This document shows positions 10,582 through 21,183 of a stretch of DNA of 64,000 nt, in pieces. Location: positions 73,379-137,378 of the forward strand of contig JBFWLR010000007.1 of assembly GCA_050252035.1 (NCBI GenBank), in the 5' to 3' direction. How positions within the stretch are numbered: position 1 is the first letter of the stretch; the number at the start of each line of letters is the position of its first letter. The notes beneath the pieces were generated by a model. The model ran no database searches. It was not told the origin of the DNA and saw nothing but the letters and a program-made list of their open reading frames with translations. The translations under genes and the position numbers were made by a program. The DNA comes from Xanthobacter sp. (GTDB lineage: Bacteria > Pseudomonadota > Alphaproteobacteria > Rhizobiales > Xanthobacteraceae).

Positions 10582-12162
<1,581 letters not shown>

Positions 12163-12167
12163 TATGA

Positions 12168-12197
12168 AAAAGGCACCGGAGAAATCCGGTGCCTTTT
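12168..12197. terminator. Bidirectional terminator between serS and the convergent cassette
   Basis: AAAAGGCACCGGA-gaaa-TCCGGTGCCTTTT. Confidence 0.85.
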
Positions 12198-12231: not shown

Positions 12232-13017
12232 TCAGTCCCGGGATGGCTCATGAATGCGGATGGCCTTGTAATCAGCCATCCAGCCCAGCGTCTGTTCCGT
12301 GGGGCCCATCGTGCGATATTCTGCCCCGATGGGCCGAGACCAACCCAGCGCGCCAATTCTGGAGAGGGTGTAGCCATAATCGAGCTCGCCTTCATCCGGG
12401 CGGGTGCGCGCCGGTATAGAGGCCATCTGAACATGCCCGATAATGGGGAGCAGCCGCTTAAAGGTGCGGTAGACATCCCCTCCCGTGATCTGCTGGTGAT
12501 AGCAATCGAACATCAGACGCAGTTGAGGCAAGCACAACTCCTGAATGATATCGGCGGCTTGCTGTGCGGTATTGAGAAAATAGCCCGGCGCATCATAGGG
12601 GTTCAGCGGCTCGATCAGGATTGTCAGGCCATGTGGGGCTGCACGTGAGCAGGCATAGTAAAGATTGTTGCAAAAGCTATGGTGGGCATCCGGGCCTGAG
12701 GCGATTCCAGCCATGACATGAATGGATTGTGCCTGAATGGCCACGGCATATTCAATTGCCTGATCAATGGCTGCGCGGGCGTCTGCCTCGCGTCCCGGCA
12801 GGGCTGCCAGCCCGTTCTCACCTGCCTTGCCACGGCTCGTATTGAGCCCCAGCATGCTCAGGCCGGTTTCTTCAAGGGCTGAGGCGATCTGTTCGGCTGG
12901 CGTCTCATAAGGCCAGTGGCACTCCACCGCATCAAATCCGGCCCGGGCTGCGGCACGTATGGCTTCGGATAGAGACAACTCATTCCACAGAAAGCCAAGA
13001 TTGGCGGAGAACTGCAT
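12232..13017 (-). CDS. Hydroxypyruvate isomerase-family TIM barrel (Hyi/OtnI-like)
   Basis: FSANLGFLW, ILIEPLNPYDAPGYFL, LMFDCYHQQ and GHVQMAS...RTRPDEGELDY motifs. Confidence 0.85.
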   Translation of the reverse strand: MQFSANLGFLWNELSLSEAIRAAARAGFDAVECHWPYETPAEQIASALEETGLSMLGLNTSRGKAGENGLAALPGREADARAAIDQAIEYAVAIQAQSIHVMAGIASGPDAHHSFCNNLYYACSRAAPHGLTILIEPLNPYDAPGYFLNTAQQAADIIQELCLPQLRLMFDCYHQQITGGDVYRTFKRLLPIIGHVQMASIPARTRPDEGELDYGYTLSRIGALGWSRPIGAEYRTMGPTEQTLGWMADYKAIRIHEPSRD

Positions 13018-13062
13018 CAGATCCTCATTTCCCCAAATCGGGCATCAGTCAAAGCGGGGGCT

Positions 13063-13095
13063 GGCCGGTACATGCCATAAAGGCATGTACCGGCC
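13063..13095. other. Perfect 14-bp-stem hairpin between lldD and the hyi-like gene
   Basis: GGCCGGTACATGCC-ataaa-GGCATGTACCGGCC; terminator or mRNA stabiliser. Confidence 0.6.
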
Positions 13096-13126
13096 GAAAT
13101 GGAGTAAAGGGAGAGGGAGGATCCCT

Positions 13127-14260
13127 TCACTCCGCAAGCAGGTTGCGATCAATGTCCGCGATAGTGCGCGCGCCGGTGAGTGTCATGGCCACGCGCATTT
13201 CCTTGGCCACAATCTCCAGCATGTTGGACACACCCGCCTCTCCGTCTGTCGCTAGGGCATAGATGAAGGCGCGGCCCATCATGGTGCAATCTGCTCCAAG
13301 AGCCAGAAGGCGCACCACATCCAGCCCCGAGCGCACACCGGAATCGGCGAGGATGGTGATATCGCCCTTGACGGCATCGGCAATGGCCGGCAGGGCTCGC
13401 ACCGAGGACAGCACACCATCCAACTGACGGCCGCCATGGTTGGATACGATGATGCCATCTGCACCAAAGCGAACAGCATCCCGGGCATCCTCGACATCCA
13501 GAATGCCCTTGATGACCATGGGGCCCTTCCAGAAATCACGGATCCACTCCAGATCCTTCCAGCTGATGGAGGGATCGAAATTGGCACCGAGCCAGCCAAT
13601 ATAATCTTCCAGCTTGGTGGGCTGGCCGCGATAGGCGGAGATATTGCCAAGATCATGCGGCGTGCCCTGCAGCCCGACATCCCAGGCCCAGACGGGGTGT
13701 GTCATGGCCTGAAAATACTGGCGCAGTTTGGCGTTTGGTCCGGACATGCCGGAATGCATATCGCGGTAACGCGCGCCCGGTACAGGCATATCCACCGTGA
13801 AGATGAGGGTATTGATGCCGGCTGCCTGCGCCCTTTCCAGCACATTGCGCATGAAGCCCCTGTCCTTCAGCACATAGAGCTGGAACCAGATGGGTTTTGC
13901 CGATTGCGGCTGCACTTCCTCAATGGGGCACACTGAAACCGTAGAAAGCGTGAAGGGCACGCCATGTGCAGCAGCTGCCCGGGCAGCCTGCACCTCGCCA
14001 CGGCGTGCAAACATGCCTGTGAGACCGACAGGCGCCAGTGCGACGGGCATGGCCAGTTTCTGGCCGAAAACCTCCGTACGCAAATCCAGATCGCTCATGT
14101 TTCGCAGAACACGCTGCCGCAACGCGATTTCCGCAAGGTCCGAAACATTGTGGCGCAGGGTGTGCTCGGCATAAGCACCGCCATCAATATAGTGGAACAG
14201 GAAGGGCGGCAGCCGACGCCGGGCCGCTTCGCGATAGTCGGAAAGCGATGACACGATCAT
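13127..14260 (-). CDS. lldD: FMN-dependent L-lactate dehydrogenase
   Basis: [37 protein letters not shown] motifs. Confidence 0.93.
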
Positions 14261-14472
14261 GTTTTCAATCCCAGCTCAAGAGCAACGGGTGGTGCAGGCC
14301 GGACGTGCCTGCCAGATTGGATAGTATCGCGAAGCGGAGTGGAGCCCACGCACCCTGTGGTGGAATTCGTCTCCGCAGCGCACCATTCACCATGTTGCGA
14401 CGCCAAATCGGGGCGGGGAAGGCGTGCAGAAGGGGGCAGGGGCCGTATGACGGCCGCCTGCACAGAGCCGGA

Positions 14473-15930
14473 TCAGCCCTGAATGTAAATCACGTGTGTT
14501 TCCGTGAATTCGTACAGCCCGTGCTTGCCATCTGCACCGCCAATGCCGGATTTACGACGGCCGGCATGGAAGCCCTGCATCGCCTCGAAATTTTCGCGAT
14601 TGATATAGGTCTCGCCAAACTTCAATTCGCGGCTGGCCTTGAGAGCAGCGTTGAGGTCTCGCGTATAGATGGAAGATGTCAGGCCATAATCCGAGTCATT
14701 GGCCAAAGCGATGGCTTCATCCAGACTGGTGACCGCCTGAACCGGAAGTACCGGGCCGAAAGTCTCACGCTGCATGATATCCATCTTCTGGGTCGCACCT
14801 GTGATCAGGGTCGGCTCATAATGGAACCCAACACTGCGATCGGCGATCTTGCCGCCCGTGATGACGGTTGCGCCCTGTTCACGCGCCTTTTCAACCGCCT
14901 TGGCCACCTTCTCCAGACCGATCCGGTTGACCAGCGGCCCCATATGCAGATCTTCTTCCAGTGAAGGGTCACCATAGCGGGTGGCTTCAAACAGGCTCTT
15001 GAGCTTCTCAACCAGCGCGTCATGCACCTCGCGCGCGACATAGACACGCTCCGCGCAGTTGCAGACCTGCCCGGTATTGATGATGCGGGAATCGTAGATT
15101 GCCTTGGCCGCCAGATCGAGATCTGCATCCTTCAGCACTATGGCAGGGGCTTTCCCGCCCAGTTCCAGATTGACGCGTGTGAGGTTCTTGGCAGCCAGCT
15201 GCATGATGTGTGAGCCGGTGGCCACGCTGCCTGTAAAGGTGACCATATCAATGCCGGGATGCGCCGCCAGCGCCTCACCAGATACTGCACCTCGTCCGCC
15301 AATCAGATTGAAGACCCCCTTGGGCAGGTCTGTCTGGCTGGCGAGTTCTGCAAACAGATAGGCGTTAAGAGGGGTTTCCTCGCTGGGCTTGATGACAATG
15401 GTATTGCCTGTCACCAGAGCCGGAGCCAGCTTGCGGGCGATGAGGAAGAAGGGGAAGTTCCAGGGCAGAATGCCGGCCACAACGCCTACCGGCTTACGCA
15501 GCAGCAGCATTGTTTCGTTCGGGCGATCGCTTGTCAGCACCTCGCCTTCGATCCTGCGGGCCCATTCGGCCATATAGTCCATATAATCTGCGGTGAAATC
15601 CACCTCGACCTGCGCCAGCCCGCGCACCTTGCCCTGCTCCTGTACGATGCAGTCAGCCAGGTCTGTGCGATTTTCACGCAACTTGGCGGCGATCTGGCGC
15701 AGGAAGCCGGCACGCTCTATGGCAGGGCGCTTTTCCCAGTCGGCTTGCGCTGTGCGGGCGGCAGTGACGGCGCGATCCACTTCGGCCGGGTCAGTTTCCG
15801 GAATACGCCCGATCACCTGCCCTGTTGCCGGATTGAGCACATCAATGAGTGCTCCATCATGATCGACAAATGCACCGTCGATGTAATTGCGATAGGCGTG
15901 GTCAATGTTGACCAGTGGATTGGCGGCCAT
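14473..15930 (-). CDS. aldA: NAD-dependent aldehyde dehydrogenase, lactaldehyde/glycolaldehyde type
   Basis: ILPWNFPFFLIARK, ELGGKAP, GQVCNC, EAMQGFHAGRRKSGIGGADGKHGL; RBS GGAGG before ATG 15930. Confidence 0.88.
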   Translation of the reverse strand: MAANPLVNIDHAYRNYIDGAFVDHDGALIDVLNPATGQVIGRIPETDPAEVDRAVTAARTAQADWEKRPAIERAGFLRQIAAKLRENRTDLADCIVQEQGKVRGLAQVEVDFTADYMDYMAEWARRIEGEVLTSDRPNETMLLLRKPVGVVAGILPWNFPFFLIARKLAPALVTGNTIVIKPSEETPLNAYLFAELASQTDLPKGVFNLIGGRGAVSGEALAAHPGIDMVTFTGSVATGSHIMQLAAKNLTRVNLELGGKAPAIVLKDADLDLAAKAIYDSRIINTGQVCNCAERVYVAREVHDALVEKLKSLFEATRYGDPSLEEDLHMGPLVNRIGLEKVAKAVEKAREQGATVITGGKIADRSVGFHYEPTLITGATQKMDIMQRETFGPVLPVQAVTSLDEAIALANDSDYGLTSSIYTRDLNAALKASRELKFGETYINRENFEAMQGFHAGRRKSGIGGADGKHGLYEFTETHVIYIQG

Positions 15931-16004
15931 GTTTTCCTCCACTCGTGTTTGTCATGCGGGCCACCCGGTGGGGGTAGCCCGCAGCCGTTTTGTCGCGAGT
16001 TAAT

Positions 16005-17087
16005 TCAGCTTATTGGGTTTTGCTGGAGATGGTCTGTAGCCAATTCCTTCTTGCCAGATGCAATCCACGTCTCTTCAGCCTCTGGCGAAATGCCACGCGC
16101 CTTCTGCCAGCGTGAAACCGCAATGACCAGGAAGGGCACCAGCAGGGCCGTAGTGATTGTGGCAGCTGCAATCTGGGAGGTCGCCAGCGGCTCAATCGCC
16201 TTATAGGTGGGGTCCAGCAGGGCGACTGCGGCCGGGGTGGCTACGGCATTGCCGGCGACTGTCGCTTCTGCTGCGCCGGCAATTACATTGCGGGTCGCCG
16301 GGGGGCGGTTAGTGATGACATGCATGATCTTGAGGAAGAGAATAGCCGCGCCACCCGAAAGGATAACAGTGGCAATACCTAGCAGTACGCCCTGAAGGCC
16401 GGCCTGACCCAGGGTGGAAAAATCAATGCCACGGCCCACGACGAAGCCCAGGAAGGGAATGAGCAGCGCCTCACCCGGCTCAAGGAACTTGCGCGCTGTC
16501 TGGCTCATATTGCCTATGATGAAGCCAATGAAGAGCGGCAGAAGACAGCCCAGAAGCATTAACAGGGGAAAGGCCGCAAGACCCGCCGTGCCGAGAATGA
16601 GCAGGGTGATGAAGGGGCCGTCATTCAGCGAGATCACAGAGACTGCACCGCGGTCACTGCTGTTGCCGAACTGCTTGGTGAGCGCCACGAACAGGGCTGA
16701 ATTGGAGTTTGTCATGCCCGCAATAATGGCCAGAGGCGTCAGGCCCCAAAGCACACCACCCGGCAGATAGAAGGCGACCAGAAGGCCGATAAGGCCGCCG
16801 ACTGCCGCCTTGCCCAGCAGAATGGCCGCTCCCTTTTGCAAGGTGGCGGATGTCTGCCGGAAATCAATCTGCGAACCCATGCAGAAGAAGAACAGACCAA
16901 GAAGGGCGCCGGTTCCATTACGGAACAGGGCCGTTGCAAAACTGCCGATTTCCAGAACCTGAGGGCAGAATGTATTGATTGTCGCCCCTAGGAAGAGCGG
17001 CACAATCATGGCTGCTCCCGGAATTTTGCAGATCCATACGCCAAATTTTTGCAGGACAGACAGGTTTTTATAGGCGTCTGTTGTCAT
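16005..17087 (-). CDS. kdgT: 2-keto-3-deoxygluconate permease family transporter
   Basis: KIPGAAMIVPLFLGATINTF, NSNSAL, SLNDGPF and AGNAVATPAAVA motifs. Confidence 0.88.
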   Translation of the reverse strand: MTTDAYKNLSVLQKFGVWICKIPGAAMIVPLFLGATINTFCPQVLEIGSFATALFRNGTGALLGLFFFCMGSQIDFRQTSATLQKGAAILLGKAAVGGLIGLLVAFYLPGGVLWGLTPLAIIAGMTNSNSALFVALTKQFGNSSDRGAVSVISLNDGPFITLLILGTAGLAAFPLLMLLGCLLPLFIGFIIGNMSQTARKFLEPGEALLIPFLGFVVGRGIDFSTLGQAGLQGVLLGIATVILSGGAAILFLKIMHVITNRPPATRNVIAGAAEATVAGNAVATPAAVALLDPTYKAIEPLATSQIAAATITTALLVPFLVIAVSRWQKARGISPEAEETWIASGKKELATDHLQQNPIS

Positions 17088-17146
17088 GATTTCCTCCCAG
17101 ATCTATATTTTATATTTTCTGGAAATATATTTTGTGCAGATATCTG

Positions 17147-17782
17147 CTATGTTGTGACTGAAACTACATTCTGTATGTTCTTGTTCCAGATAAGTTTTCC
17201 ACATTCAACGACATTAGAGGTGCTCATGACTGGAAAACGGATTTCCTCTACATCGCCTGTATGTGCGATATAATCATCACCACTCTGAATCGAGGCTGTT
17301 TCCTTGGTGGGGAAGAAACTGGTCGGTTCTGAATAGTTGTACACCATGGTGAAGGTGCCATCCGAAATCGTGCCGTCAGGCAGGAGGATGCCGGGCGGGC
17401 AGGCATTCCAAGTGTGGGGCAGGCCGGGGGGAATATCCACAAGGGTGCCAGGCGCGACCACGAAATATTCGCCGCCCAGTTCAGTGATGCCGACACCATT
17501 GAGAACAAGAATACGCTCAGGAAGAATGCGGTACTTTCCGGTTTCCTCATCAAGAATCATATGGACGTGACGGGGCAGGCGACAGTCTGTATTGAATTCG
17601 ATGTATCCGAACTGTCCTTCGAAGGAGAGGTTCCCGTCCTCATCATCGCCTGTATACAGTTCATGCATCGTCACAGGTGCATTTTTAAGCGGGTTCTTGA
17701 TATTGCCGCCGCTGCCATGTGTAATGCGGGTGCCATTCTCAAGCTTCACCCCCAGAATTTGAGGGGTCTTCTGCTGGGACAT
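17147..17782 (-). CDS. Cupin-domain protein, function unknown
   Basis: HVH...E (motif 1) and GTLVDIPPGLPHTWN (motif 2). Confidence 0.7.
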   Translation of the reverse strand: MSQQKTPQILGVKLENGTRITHGSGGNIKNPLKNAPVTMHELYTGDDEDGNLSFEGQFGYIEFNTDCRLPRHVHMILDEETGKYRILPERILVLNGVGITELGGEYFVVAPGTLVDIPPGLPHTWNACPPGILLPDGTISDGTFTMVYNYSEPTSFFPTKETASIQSGDDYIAHTGDVEEIRFPVMSTSNVVECGKLIWNKNIQNVVSVTT

Positions 17783-17875
17783 CTCCAGTCCTCCGATGGG
17801 TTTTCTGAATGAAGTCGCCGGGCCGGCCAGCTGTGTTTTGCAGGCCCGGCATTGACTGTCTGGGGCAGACAGGGC

Positions 17876-19222
17876 TCAGCTTTTTGCCAGGAAGGCGGTT
17901 TCCATCTCCTTGCGGAGCATGATGGTTGCGTCTGCCGCGTCATACTGAACATCGGACCAGCACACGACTTGGCCTTCAGCCACGTCCCGCTTCAGGGTCA
18001 TGCCATGCGCAAGACCAATTGGAACGGCATCCAGCTTGCTGGAGGTCGCTGCAGGGATGACCTTGCCGTAAACGGTGAAGCCGCCCTCACCATCCAGCAC
18101 TTCACCCGATGCAAGCTTGCGCTTGGCCACCGCAACCACATCCGCACTCCAGCCCTTGGTGCGTCCGGTCGGTTCCTTGCGGGTGGCAATGCTGGCGACG
18201 GAAAGACCCAGCTCCAGGCCGATGAGATGATAGGGCTTGTAGGTGGCTGCGAAACGACCGGTGCTGTCGGTCAGCAGGCCATATTGCTTGAAACAGTCGC
18301 GGACATAATCCGTTTCGCCCTCAATGACGACATAGACCCCCCAGCGCAGATCGCGATAGACCGGCCGACCATCACGTTCGATGGATGACACCACCTCCAC
18401 GGTACCCTTGCGCTTGAGAATGCCGCCATGTTCGACGGGGCGCAGAATGGTCTGCAAATCATCGGCGCCGCAGGGAGGGAACTGGAGGCCATCATCGGGC
18501 GGACTGAGTTCGCAGGCATTGGAGACCGCTGCCATTTCGAGCGCTGATTTGGTGCCATCCAGAAAGGAGTTGAACATTTTGGGGTTGAAGTCGCCGCCAG
18601 CGACCTGCTCGGGGCTGAAGCCATAATGGCCCCATACGGTATCCGGGGTCGATTTGTGGTAGATGGGCAGATATTTCGTGCCCTTGCCGGCGCAGACGAC
18701 ATCAAAACCCGTGCAGCGCGCCCAATCGACCATTTCGGCAATAAGAGCGGGCTGGTCGCCAGAAGCCATGGAATAGATGATGCCGGCATCGGCGGCTTTT
18801 CGGGCCAGCAGCGGGCCAGCCAGCACATCGGCTTCAACATTCACCATGATGATGTGCTTGCCATGCTCACAGGCCGCCAGCACATGCTTGACGCCCGCAG
18901 CCGGATGGCCTGTCGCGTCAATCACGATATCGATGAAGGGGCTGGCGATGAGCTCTGCCGAATTGTCAGTTACATGGGTTGCCCCGGTCCGGTGTGCTTC
19001 CTCCAGTGAGCGGGCGGAGAACTGCTCGGCAGTCCAGCCCACACGCCGCAGCGACGCCTGAGCGTGGGTGGGAGAGAGGTCGGCAATGCCCACGAGGTGT
19101 ACACCCGGTGTCCGCCTGACCTGGGCGAGGTACATGGAGCCGAACTTGCCGGCACCAATGAGTCCGACGCGGGCCGGCCGCTCTTCAGCCTGTAATGCGC
19201 GCAATTTATCGAACATGGACAT
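17876..19222 (-). CDS. NAD(P)-dependent oxidoreductase with C-terminal SAF domain (COG4091-like)
   Basis: VGLIGAGKFG Rossmann motif, VNVEAD, GDQP, NSFLDGTKSALEM, C-terminal DVVAVAKRKL...LDGEGG SAF domain. Confidence 0.85.
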   Translation of the reverse strand: MSMFDKLRALQAEERPARVGLIGAGKFGSMYLAQVRRTPGVHLVGIADLSPTHAQASLRRVGWTAEQFSARSLEEAHRTGATHVTDNSAELIASPFIDIVIDATGHPAAGVKHVLAACEHGKHIIMVNVEADVLAGPLLARKAADAGIIYSMASGDQPALIAEMVDWARCTGFDVVCAGKGTKYLPIYHKSTPDTVWGHYGFSPEQVAGGDFNPKMFNSFLDGTKSALEMAAVSNACELSPPDDGLQFPPCGADDLQTILRPVEHGGILKRKGTVEVVSSIERDGRPVYRDLRWGVYVVIEGETDYVRDCFKQYGLLTDSTGRFAATYKPYHLIGLELGLSVASIATRKEPTGRTKGWSADVVAVAKRKLASGEVLDGEGGFTVYGKVIPAATSSKLDAVPIGLAHGMTLKRDVAEGQVVCWSDVQYDAADATIMLRKEMETAFLAKS

Positions 19223-19313
19223 GGGCGTTTTCCCTTATGCGGATTATCCGTCGCGGCTGGCATTTGCTGGGCCAGAAGCGCGTTTTTCTTGTGCTAGCGA
19301 ATGCGCGCGGTTT

Positions 19314-19357
19314 ATGTAAATTCGCAGACATACAAAGCCGGTGTGCAGGAATTCGCA
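19314..19357. promoter_or_regulatory. Candidate LysR binding region in the divergent promoter
   Basis: ATGT-N10-ACAT inverted repeat (19314-19331) and repeated AATTCGCA. Confidence 0.35.
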
Positions 19358-19358
19358 T

Positions 19359-20267
19359 ATGATGGAGTTGGATTGGGATGACCTGCGCGCCTTTCTCGCG
19401 GTTGCGAGAGTGGGGCGGCTGACTGTTGCAGCGCGGCGTCTTGGACTGGATCATTCTACGCTGAGCCGGCGCATTTCCGGGTTGGAAGCCACGCTTGAGA
19501 TTGCCCTCTTCGAGCGCTCTCCTGCCGGTTACAAGATTACCGAGGCTGGCCAGAAGCTGGCAGCGGAAGTGCAGCAAATGGAGCATTCCGTCATTCGCAT
19601 TCAAACCCATGTTGCGGATGAATTGCACAAGTTGACCGGGCCGACGCGGTTGACAATGCCGGAAGGATTTTCAACCAGTTTCTTTGTGTATCAGCTTCAC
19701 TTGCTGCGGCAGATACACCCGGAAATATCCATTGAGCTGATCGCCGACCCCAGTATTGTGAGCCTCACCAAACGTGAGGCCGATATCGCTATCATGATGG
19801 AGCGCCCCACGCAGGGACCGCTGGTTTCCCGCAAACTGAGCGATTATGAATATGGCCTGTATTGCAGCGCACAATACCGGGCTGAGCATTCGCAAATCCG
19901 GTCCATTCACGATATCCGGGATCATATCGTTATCGGCTATATTCCCGATCTGATCCCAACGCCTGCACATGATTATCTGAAGGATTATCTGCCGGGCCGC
20001 GATGCCGATCTTCAGGTCTCGAATATTCTTACGCAGGTTGAGGCGACCATGAATGGGCTGGGCATTGCGCTTTTGCCCTGCTTCATGGCCGCTCGGCATC
20101 AAAATCTGGAGCGGTTGCTGGTGGATGATATCAGCTTCACGCGTTCCTACTGGATCGTCACCCATCAGGAATCCCGATACCCGGTGCGAACAGGACGTGT
20201 GAAGGATTTCATTATTGGTCAGGTGCATGAAAACCGGGCACTGTTCATCCCGACAGCTTTTGGGTGA
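19359..20267 (+). CDS. LysR family regulator
   Basis: LDWDDLRAFLAVARVGRLTVAARRLGLDHSTLSRRI HTH; divergent from the cassette. Confidence 0.95.
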   Translation: MMELDWDDLRAFLAVARVGRLTVAARRLGLDHSTLSRRISGLEATLEIALFERSPAGYKITEAGQKLAAEVQQMEHSVIRIQTHVADELHKLTGPTRLTMPEGFSTSFFVYQLHLLRQIHPEISIELIADPSIVSLTKREADIAIMMERPTQGPLVSRKLSDYEYGLYCSAQYRAEHSQIRSIHDIRDHIVIGYIPDLIPTPAHDYLKDYLPGRDADLQVSNILTQVEATMNGLGIALLPCFMAARHQNLERLLVDDISFTRSYWIVTHQESRYPVRTGRVKDFIIGQVHENRALFIPTAFG

Positions 20268-20415: not shown

Positions 20416-21183
20416 ATGCGCATTCTGGTCACCAATGATGATGGCATTCATGCGCCCGGTCTTGATGCCTGCGCGCGCATCGCGCGGCACTTCTCGGATG
20501 ATGTGTGGGTCGTGGCGCCTGAGACGGACCAGTCCGGCGTGGCGCATTCGCTGTCTCTGTCCGATCCGCTGCGGCTGAGGCAGATCGATACCCAGCGTTT
20601 TGCCGTGAAGGGCACGCCGACCGATTGCGTCATCATGGCTGTGCGCCATCTGTTGCATGACAATCCGCCGGATCTGGTGCTCTCAGGCATCAATCGCGGG
20701 CAGAATATTGCCGAAGATGTGAGCTATTCTGGCACTGTTGCCGGGGCGATTGAAGGCACGATTCTTGGCATCCCCTCCATCGCGCTGTCGCAGGCCTTTG
20801 GTCCTCAAAGCCCGGTCTATCCCGGTTATGAAACGGCCGAGCGCCATGCCCCGGCAGTGATCCGCCGGCTGCTGGATGAAGGCATTCCCGCCGGCATCGT
20901 GATGAACCTGAATTTTCCTGATTGCCTGCCCGGTGAGGTGCAGGGCGTCTCCGCCACGTTCCAGGGCACGCGCGATCAGCAGCTTCTCAAGATTGATCCG
21001 CGCCGGGATGGACGAGGCAATCCCTATTACTGGATTGCCTTTGAGCGTCGCACGTACAATGCGGCGCCGGGCTCTGATCTGCAGGCGCTGGACGATAAGC
21101 GTGTTTCCGTGACCCCGCTGCGTCTGGATATGACGGATGAGCCGTTGATGACGCGCCTTGCCCTTCTGTTTTCTGAAAAATAG
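20416..21183 (+). CDS. surE: 5'/3'-nucleotidase SurE
   Basis: [17 protein letters not shown] and YSGTVAGA motifs. Confidence 0.97.

Follow-up and report, generated by a model that had tools for sequence, protein, structure and literature searches.

Which compound is broken down by a gene cluster in which lactaldehyde- and lactate-type dehydrogenases stand beside an orphan cupin and an oxidoreductase related to an isoprenoid enzyme? We addressed this question for the genes between serS and surE in a 64,000-nucleotide stretch of Xanthobacter sp. DNA (the window). This DNA was obtained from a landfill metagenome; the genome to which it belongs is 99.8% complete. A single search for sequencing runs of any kind, as opposed to one for RNA, listed only DNA-type metagenome runs.

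Results

All seven open reading frames of a preliminary description of the locus were recovered in place. They are flanked on the left by serS (10660-12162, plus strand; TIGR00414, 476 bits) and on the right by surE (20416-21183, plus strand; NF001490, 373.6 bits). A lysR gene (19341-20267, plus strand; Pfam HTH_1 and LysR_substrate) diverges from six minus-strand genes, which encode, in the order of reading, a DXR-II-like oxidoreductase of the DLO branch (17876-19222; DRL_cat, Rossmann, and SAF domains), an orphan cupin predicted to be of the metal type (17147-17782; weak Cupin_2 match), a KdgT-family permease (16005-17087; PF03812), an AldA of the lactaldehyde/glycolaldehyde dehydrogenase type (AldA/PRK10090; 14473-15942; NF007497), an FMN-dependent L-lactate dehydrogenase, LldD (13127-14260; NF033901), and a Hyi/OtnI-like TIM-barrel isomerase (12232-13017; AP_endonuc_2). 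The minus-strand genes are spaced 59 to 212 bp apart, most gaps measuring 59 to 109 bp and the 212-bp gap preceding lldD, and 118 bp separate lysR from the oxidoreductase gene. The cluster had been described as having no aldolase, kinase, or dehydratase, and indeed we found such a domain in none of the seven products.

The earlier claim that the block is an insertion was also substantiated: serS directly adjoins surE in 11 relatives, with 13 to 230 bp between them, and the 8-kb block is therefore an insertion. A search of its borders for repeats found none of at least 8 bp. We regard this LysR-controlled block as horizontally acquired. The divergent control region (19223-19340) contains a dyad, ATGT-N10-ACAT (19313-19330), that is a putative LysR binding site; alignment and pattern search showed its core, TGCGAATTTACA (19315-19326, minus strand), to be invariant in five genomes. 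LysR itself is 65 to 72% identical to its same-position counterparts in six of the related loci considered below (L002 to L005, L007, and L008). At the other end of the block, a bidirectional terminator-like hairpin (12167-12197) lies between the convergent serS and isomerase genes and, read directly from the sequence, is built of an A-run, GGCACCGG, a loop, CCGGTGCC, and a T-run. A scan for promoter and terminator consensus sequences gave counts no higher than in shuffled sequence.

The oxidoreductase contains PF21135 (DRL_cat, 197 bits), PF01408, and PF08666 (SAF) and matches DXR-II (DRL) of Brucella abortus (PDB 3UPL/3UPY) at an E value of 2e-55, the Rossmann, DRL_cat, and SAF domains being the same in both. 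The previous statement that no assigned substrate was known for COG4091 proteins thus has to be corrected, since Brucella DXR-II/DRL is a characterized member. The oxidoreductase retains Lys191 and Lys193 as well as the NVEAD and DGxK..E motifs of DXR-II, with which it has two phosphonate-binding lysines in common, and the anion-binding lysines and metal/catalytic motifs of DXR-II are invariant among its orthologs. In contrast, Thr229 and His250, given as DXR-II-specific residues (PMC3847144), are aligned to Ser226 and Gln247, replacements that have been described for DLO2 (PMC3847144) and that are invariant in 18 orthologs of the oxidoreductase. The DLO1 and DLO2 clades form an uncharacterized sister branch of DXR-II (Carretero-Paulet et al. 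2013, PMC3847144), and it is to this branch, not to DXR-II proper, that the protein belongs by its residues.

DLO clades are present in 132 of the 401 sampled genomes of the order. Orthologs of 70 to 75% identity adjoin LysR and ACS-type (galactonate-like) MFS acid transporters; with the KdgT-family permease found here, two unrelated acid-transporter families are therefore coupled to DLO. The neighborhoods of 38 DLOs sampled from the order at 52 to 67% identity had no single theme, the neighbors being PhyH, DctP, GST, aminotransferase, MFS, and TctC. The DLO and cupin sequences were also compared with each other directly.

The cupin gene, which encodes 211 amino acids, has the lowest GC content in the cluster (0.506). 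Its product matches Cupin_2 at 20 bits, below the cut-off, and neither Pfam scans of all 34 family members nor a PDB profile search with the family returned anything above threshold. Six residues are invariant, namely, R68, R71, H72, H74, E89, and H123, which make up an HxH...E...H site and two arginines. Given this site and the double-stranded beta-helix of the AF2 model (pLDDT 92.9), the protein is predicted to bind a metal and to be a cupin of the metal-dependent type. Foldseek and VIA-align retrieved generic cupin folds alone (TM of at most 0.44, Z of at most 10.3); the best structural neighbors were RmlC-type epimerases (Z of about 10), followed at a Z of about 7 by isomerases, dioxygenases, and one decarboxylase. 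Isomerase or dioxygenase chemistry would be as compatible with the modeled fold as C-C cleavage. The family comprises 109 clusters among 1.84 billion proteins, is carried by 2 of the 32 genomes of the genus, and occurs in ascomycete fungi as well, where its homologs lie near flavocytochrome b2.

The AldA and LldD identities proposed earlier were upheld at equivalog level, with 759.7 bits against NF007497 (cut-off, 500) and 752.9 bits against NF033901 (cut-off, 550). LldD is the only full-length FMN_dh of the genome. In relatives, the lldD slot is filled by a different FMN dehydrogenase or by none; because of this variability and the 212-bp gap, lldD may have its own promoter and serve general lactate use. 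The KdgT assignment stood for the family (PF03812, 336 bits) and not for the function, as the permease scores 223.2 bits against the KDG-permease equivalog TIGR00793 (cut-off, 453.8); a 2-keto-3-deoxy cargo is therefore just one possibility. Similarly, the Hyi-like isomerase proved to be an AP_endonuc_2 protein, the only one in the genome, with matches to PDB 3NGF and 1K77 (YgbM), and fell short of the equivalog cut-offs for both OtnI (257.8 bits; cut-off, 325) and Hyi (222.2 bits; cut-off, 353.45). At the level of sequence, it is assignable only to the wider AP_endonuc_2 TIM-barrel family. A classical Hyi role together with glyoxylate carboligase was ruled out, as the genome has no Gcl.

Co-conservation of the genes, as previously suggested, is borne out by seven other genomes (L002 to L008), which have in common the order DLO-cupin-kdgT-aldA-(FMN dehydrogenase)-isomerase, divergent from lysR. 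These genomes are labeled Pseudochrobactrum, Brucella oryzae, Mesorhizobium, Brucellaceae MAG, "Xanthobacter" MAG, and, in one case, "Bacillus subtilis," a record that is probably mislabeled. Neither serS nor surE was seen in their fetched flanks (8 kb). Altogether, the oxidoreductase-cupin pair was found at 12 loci, where an aldehyde dehydrogenase and an acid transporter usually accompany it. L009, L011, L087, and L088 likewise carry the DLO-cupin core, the two genes overlapping translationally in L088; these four loci and L004 have no isomerase. L087 combines a divergent LysR, DLO-cupin, and an FMN dehydrogenase; as far as it was fetched, this locus lacks an aldehyde dehydrogenase. For ten pairs of DLO and cupin matches, the longest contig was equal in size within the pair. 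The cupin is also paired with aldehyde dehydrogenases of another subfamily and a lactate permease (L021, L064, and L063). DLO orthologs are often found in the absence of the cupin, which in turn occurs without DLO, indicating that the two are not obligate partners. Our literature search found no paper describing this gene set, in agreement with its earlier designation as a candidate undescribed pathway.

Discussion

Our data lead us to propose that the locus was acquired horizontally and works as a LysR-controlled operon for the catabolism of a small hydroxy-carboxylate, a deoxy or short sugar acid being the likeliest kind. We see the balance for and against this proposal as even. The operon probably represents an undescribed breakdown route. 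In this route, the KdgT-family permease would import the anion, and DLO, with NAD(P)+ and a divalent metal, would oxidize a secondary alcohol beside another oxygen function to an alpha-hydroxy-keto acid, an oxidation that a DXR-type rearrangement may accompany. With its His3-Glu metal site and its two arginines, the cupin would hold the keto acid and then break a C-C bond, whether by decarboxylation of a 3-oxo acid, retro-aldol cleavage, or beta-diketone cleavage, leaving an alpha-hydroxyaldehyde. AldA would convert this aldehyde to a 2-hydroxy acid and LldD would convert the latter to a 2-oxo acid, the most likely sequence in this genome being L-lactaldehyde to L-lactate to pyruvate. A search of the genome for malate synthase and glyoxylate carboligase found neither, which would make glyoxylate hard to assimilate and favors a route ending in the conversion of lactate to pyruvate. 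The Hyi/OtnI-like isomerase might shift a carbonyl between C2 and C3, acting on an intermediate or on the second fragment, in the latter case in a reaction of the hydroxypyruvate/tartronate-semialdehyde type.

According to published work, 3-oxo sugar acids either lose their carboxyl group spontaneously or depend on an "unidentified decarboxylase" (PMC13753588, PMC12994016). We tentatively suggest, at clearly less than even confidence, that DLO and the cupin form a new two-enzyme sugar-acid module in which an oxidative DXR-type enzyme, possibly rearranging a branched or deoxy acid, is followed by a cupin C-C lyase or decarboxylase, replacing dehydratase/aldolase or kinase/decarboxylase steps. 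The D-apionate oxidoisomerase ApnO oxidizes a branched sugar acid with coupled rearrangement, the chemistry expected of a DXR-type enzyme run in the catabolic direction. Membership of DLO in the ApnO-type family was rejected, however, because ApnO, whose fold is KARI-like, shares no homology with DLO (PMC13753588). DLO may still run similar chemistry.

Other readings assign the same genes to different substrates. Zhang et al. reportedly described in 2016 a four-carbon acid-sugar pathway with the DUF1537 kinase OtnK and the class II aldolase-type decarboxylase OtnC. Our cluster, too, has an OtnI-like gene, but its dehydrogenase comes from an unrelated family, and it has the cupin, AldA, and LldD instead; no DUF1537 kinase (PF07005) was found in the 99.8%-complete genome, nor an Aldolase_II domain (OtnC type) in the cluster. 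The four-carbon routes (LtnD/DenD-OtnI-OtnK-OtnC; Ltn3D) and the D-ribonate route, which includes an "unidentified decarboxylase," share with our cluster the logic of a dehydrogenase, a Hyi/OtnI-type isomerase, and removal of C1 from a 3-oxo acid (PMC12994016, PMC13753588). A nonphosphorylative four-carbon (tetronate-type) pathway would have DLO or the FMN dehydrogenase make 2-oxo-tetronate, the OtnI-like isomerase form the 3-oxo acid, the cupin serve as the missing decarboxylase yielding glyceraldehyde or dihydroxyacetone, and AldA deliver glycerate to glycerate kinase. While the higher score of the isomerase on OtnI than on Hyi, a MOFRL glycerate kinase in this genome that is devoid of the phosphorylative kinase, and the known decarboxylation of 3-oxo-tetronate to dihydroxyacetone (PMC12994016) all argue for such a pathway, the scores of AldA and LldD are those of genuine lactaldehyde and L-lactate enzymes, the isomerase falls short of the OtnI cut-off, and several DLO-cupin loci (the five named above) do without the isomerase altogether, so that we consider this pathway unlikely.

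The nonphosphorylative L-rhamnose/L-fucose and pentose routes employ a KD-acid aldolase, or a 4-dehydrogenase and a hydrolase, and share with our cluster an end part in which AldA converts lactaldehyde or glycolaldehyde to lactate or glycolate (PMC6336799). Their cargo belongs to the 2-keto-3-deoxy acids, which KdgT carries. In contrast to these routes, our cluster encodes none of their known enzymes (dehydratase, HpcH/DHDPS aldolase, SDR, and FAH). In a 6-deoxyhexose variant, the permease would import 2-keto-3-deoxy-6-deoxyhexonate, DLO would replace the SDR 4-dehydrogenase, and the cupin would replace the FAH-type diketone hydrolase or the aldolase, giving pyruvate plus L-lactate or L-lactaldehyde. 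The KdgT-family permease, the equivalog-level AldA and LldD, the gene content of L087, and the absence of glyoxylate assimilation from the genome are in line with this variant. Nevertheless, the permease scores under the KdgT equivalog, upstream rhamnose or fucose genes are absent from the cluster, the isomerase finds no place in the scheme, and AldA, the best-conserved accessory gene, would be dispensable; we therefore regard this variant as unlikely.

It is also conceivable that no single pathway exists and that independent modules (LysR-DLO, cupin-ALDH, LldD, and isomerase) lie together by chance. Every module is found separately elsewhere, and the lldD slot varies and follows the longest gap, yet most gaps are short and the order is kept in seven other genomes, none with serS or surE within 8 kb, making a chance mosaic improbable. 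That the oxidoreductase is a true DXR-II making MEP for isoprenoids, as its homology to Brucella DRL and its catalytic motifs might imply, is hardly credible in view of the canonical Dxr encoded in the same genome (430 bits; cut-off, 315.7), the replacement of Thr229 and His250, the failure of the assayed DLO-clade proteins to complement a dxr mutant (PMC3847144), and the presence of acid transporters in the catabolic operon to which the gene belongs.

Returning to the proposed sugar-acid operon, its cultured carriers (Pseudochrobactrum asaccharolyticum DSM 25619, Brucella oryzae DSM 17471, and Mesorhizobium sp. 1B3) make the question amenable to direct testing. The operon sets DLO and the cupin beside enzymes of clear function, AldA and LldD, and acid transporters, a context that limits the candidates for screening to small hydroxy, deoxy, or keto carboxylates yielding an alpha-hydroxyaldehyde. 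We see it as a good lead for enzyme discovery rather than a surprise. It may supply the "unidentified decarboxylase" step of nonphosphorylative sugar-acid routes. The DLO clades, widespread relatives of DXR-II, have been recognized since 2013, and none has an assigned function; if the two-enzyme module is real, it would provide the first function for these clades and for the orphan cupin family.

RESULTS

ORF mapping together with Pfam and NCBIfam scans matched exactly the seven genes listed in the preliminary description. A LysR gene (19341-20267) diverges across 118 bp from six genes on the reverse strand, encoding in order a Rossmann/DRL_cat/SAF oxidoreductase, here called DLO for DXR-II-like oxidoreductase (17876-19222), a 211-aa cupin placed by the ORF map (17147-17782), a KdgT-family permease (16005-17087), the lactaldehyde/glycolaldehyde dehydrogenase AldA (14473-15942; 760 bits against a cutoff of 500), the FMN-dependent L-lactate dehydrogenase LldD (13127-14260; 753 bits against a cutoff of 550), and a Hyi/OtnI-like TIM-barrel isomerase (12232-13017). 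The intra-operon gaps are 93, 59, 62, 212, and 109 bp. As first described, none of the seven products has an aldolase, kinase, or dehydratase domain in the Pfam and NCBIfam scans. Within the divergent control region lies a dyad (19313-19330); its core, TGCGAATTTACA, is unchanged across five genomes.

The block is flanked by tatC-serS on one side and surE on the other. In 10 genomes of the same genus and in 1 more distant relative, surE directly follows serS at a distance of 13 to 230 bp; by this comparison, the 8-kb block is an insertion, which bears out the earlier claim. No border repeats of 8 bp or more were found, and all genes of the block but two, the cupin gene (0.506) and lysR (0.543), have a GC content close to that of the genome. 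The cupin was detected in only 2 of the 32 genomes of the genus, the second copy lying on another contig away from serS-surE. The window originates from a landfill metagenome, near-identical DNA is present in wastewater metagenomes, and another DLO-cupin locus, L087, adjoins conjugation-type and IS66 genes. The serS-surE spacers of congeners (L068 to L075) contain GC-rich palindromic, REP-like elements that vary in length. As for serS itself, its ORF (10660-12162) is listed as 500 aa, but translation probably starts downstream of 10660: relatives align only from about residue 13 to 27 onward, and the Pfam N-terminal domain begins at residue 14.

The gene order is conserved beyond the window. 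A scan for cupin relatives yielded eight genomic loci, seven of which (L002 to L008) show the order lysR|DLO-cupin-kdgT-aldA as far as their contigs reach; the L006 contig ends just upstream of the cupin gene, and the order there is visible only in part. These seven records are labeled Pseudochrobactrum asaccharolyticum, Brucella oryzae, Mesorhizobium sp. 1B3, a Brucellaceae MAG, a "Xanthobacter" MAG, a "Rhizobiales" isolate, and Bacillus subtilis, and in none of them does serS or surE lie within 8 kb. The last of these, L005 (JAHREI010000003.1, titled "Bacillus subtilis strain SK6B4"), has almost the same cluster as Pseudochrobactrum (L003), and the assembly is probably mislabeled or contaminated. 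In most of the seven, an FMN dehydrogenase and the isomerase come next. A bona fide LldD fills the position between aldA and the isomerase gene in the window. In relatives, either this lldD slot is occupied by another FMN dehydrogenase that shares just 35% identity and does not reach the LldD cutoffs, as in the Brucellaceae-type clusters (L002:11401-12513), or it is empty, as in L004 and L008. This pattern looks like repeated replacement at a single position. The eighth locus, L009 from a Beijerinckiaceae MAG, retains only DLO-cupin, with aldA further downstream. The pair likewise occurs in L011, L087, and L088; in L088 its genes share a 4-bp overlap. For ten DLO/cupin match pairs, the longest contigs are of identical length, which suggests further shared contigs, two of which were confirmed directly.

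DLO is homologous to the characterized Brucella DXR-II/DRL (PDB 3UPL/3UPY; E value, 2e-55), and the initial premise that COG4091 lacks an assigned substrate was thus inaccurate. We nevertheless reject DLO as a true DXR-II because the genome encodes a canonical DXP reductoisomerase, Dxr (430 bits), because the DXR-II-specific residues Thr229 and His250 are replaced in the alignment by Ser and Gln, a pattern described for the uncharacterized DLO2 clade (PMC3847144), and because the DLO representatives tested failed to complement a dxr mutant (PMC3847144). Compared with Brucella DXR-II, DLO keeps both lysines to which the phosphonate of fosmidomycin binds, along with the motifs NVEAD and DGxK..E; all of these are invariant across 18 DLO orthologues (68 to 100% identity). 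From these retained features, it is likely that DLO acts on an anionic alpha-hydroxy-carbonyl compound in a metal-dependent reaction.

Orthologues with 70 to 75% identity in Methylobacterium, Herbaspirillum, and Burkholderia have the arrangement LysR|DLO; an ACS-type (galactonate-like) MFS transporter accompanies some of them, and the cupin is absent. Considering the KdgT-type and ACS-type MFS contexts together, two unrelated families of acid transporters are coupled to the same enzyme. At 52 to 67% identity, the neighbors are heterogeneous (DctP in four cases), and the wider family is common: of 401 genomes sampled from the order, 132 have a match. In Herbaspirillum (L017:1-1859), the stretch about 6 kb upstream of LysR|DLO-MFS encodes a RuBisCO-like protein together with a DUF1537 kinase, the signature pair of phosphorylative apionate/tetronate routes; a functional link is possible.

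The cupin family is small. Searched exhaustively with a profile, 1.84 billion representatives yielded only 109 clusters, of which many are fragments; ascomycete fungi are among the members. No Pfam model exceeded its threshold for any of 34 members, and no sequence relative was found in the PDB, even by profile search. Invariant in the alignment are R68, R71, H72, H74, E89, H123, W125, Y150, and Y171. AlphaFold modeled the fold confidently (pLDDT, 92.9), but the model matches only generic cupins, first RmlC-type epimerases and ketoisomerases (Z of about 10) and then metal-dependent isomerases, dioxygenases, and oxalate decarboxylase (Z of about 7). Outside DLO loci, the neighbors are aldehyde dehydrogenases of another subfamily, a lactate permease, a block with PQQ dehydrogenase, or a class II aldolase-MFS-LysR set, and in one fungus the homologue lies near flavocytochrome b2. 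These neighborhoods repeatedly point to metabolism of small alpha-hydroxy aldehydes and acids. Just downstream of the lactate permease in two DLO-less loci (L021:8720-9004 and L064:8729-9004), a conserved ORF of 91 to 94 aa without a Pfam family overlaps the cupin start and may encode a partner subunit. In both L009 (12155-15509) and L063 (12752-16113), the cupin is adjoined by the same set of genes, for an aldehyde dehydrogenase, an unknown protein (about 295 aa), a Rieske protein, and a PQQ dehydrogenase.

DISCUSSION

The enzyme inventory of the genome, which is 99.8% complete, constrains the lower pathway. DUF1537 kinase, class I glycerate kinase, and malate synthases A and G are absent from it, no glyoxylate carboligase scores above the cutoff, and a single MOFRL glycerate kinase is present. 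The cluster LldD is its sole full-length FMN_dh protein, and the cluster isomerase is its sole AP_endonuc_2 protein. With this inventory, including the lack of glyoxylate carboligase and malate synthase, a route from glycolate to glyoxylate would be hard to assimilate. Glyceraldehyde to glycerate is a possible lower pathway, and the best-fitting candidate on gene content is lactaldehyde to lactate to pyruvate.

We propose a model in which a hydroxy-carboxylate would be imported and oxidized by DLO to an alpha-hydroxy-keto acid, from which the cupin, by C-C cleavage or decarboxylation, would release an alpha-hydroxyaldehyde for AldA and then LldD, with the Hyi/OtnI-like enzyme shifting a C2/C3 carbonyl. 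For nonphosphorylated 3-oxo sugar acids, the loss of CO2 has been described as spontaneous or as catalyzed by an "unidentified decarboxylase" (PMC13753588, section 4; PMC12994016, section 6), and the cupin could fill this role. Three specific versions of the pathway remain rivals: a tetronate route, a 2-keto-3-deoxy-6-deoxyhexonate route, and the cleavage of a 2-keto-aldonate to hydroxypyruvate and lactaldehyde.

The literature searched, itself incomplete, contained no account of this gene set. The cluster is a LysR-controlled acid-sugar operon of a familiar kind, with two functionally uncharacterized enzyme families at its center.
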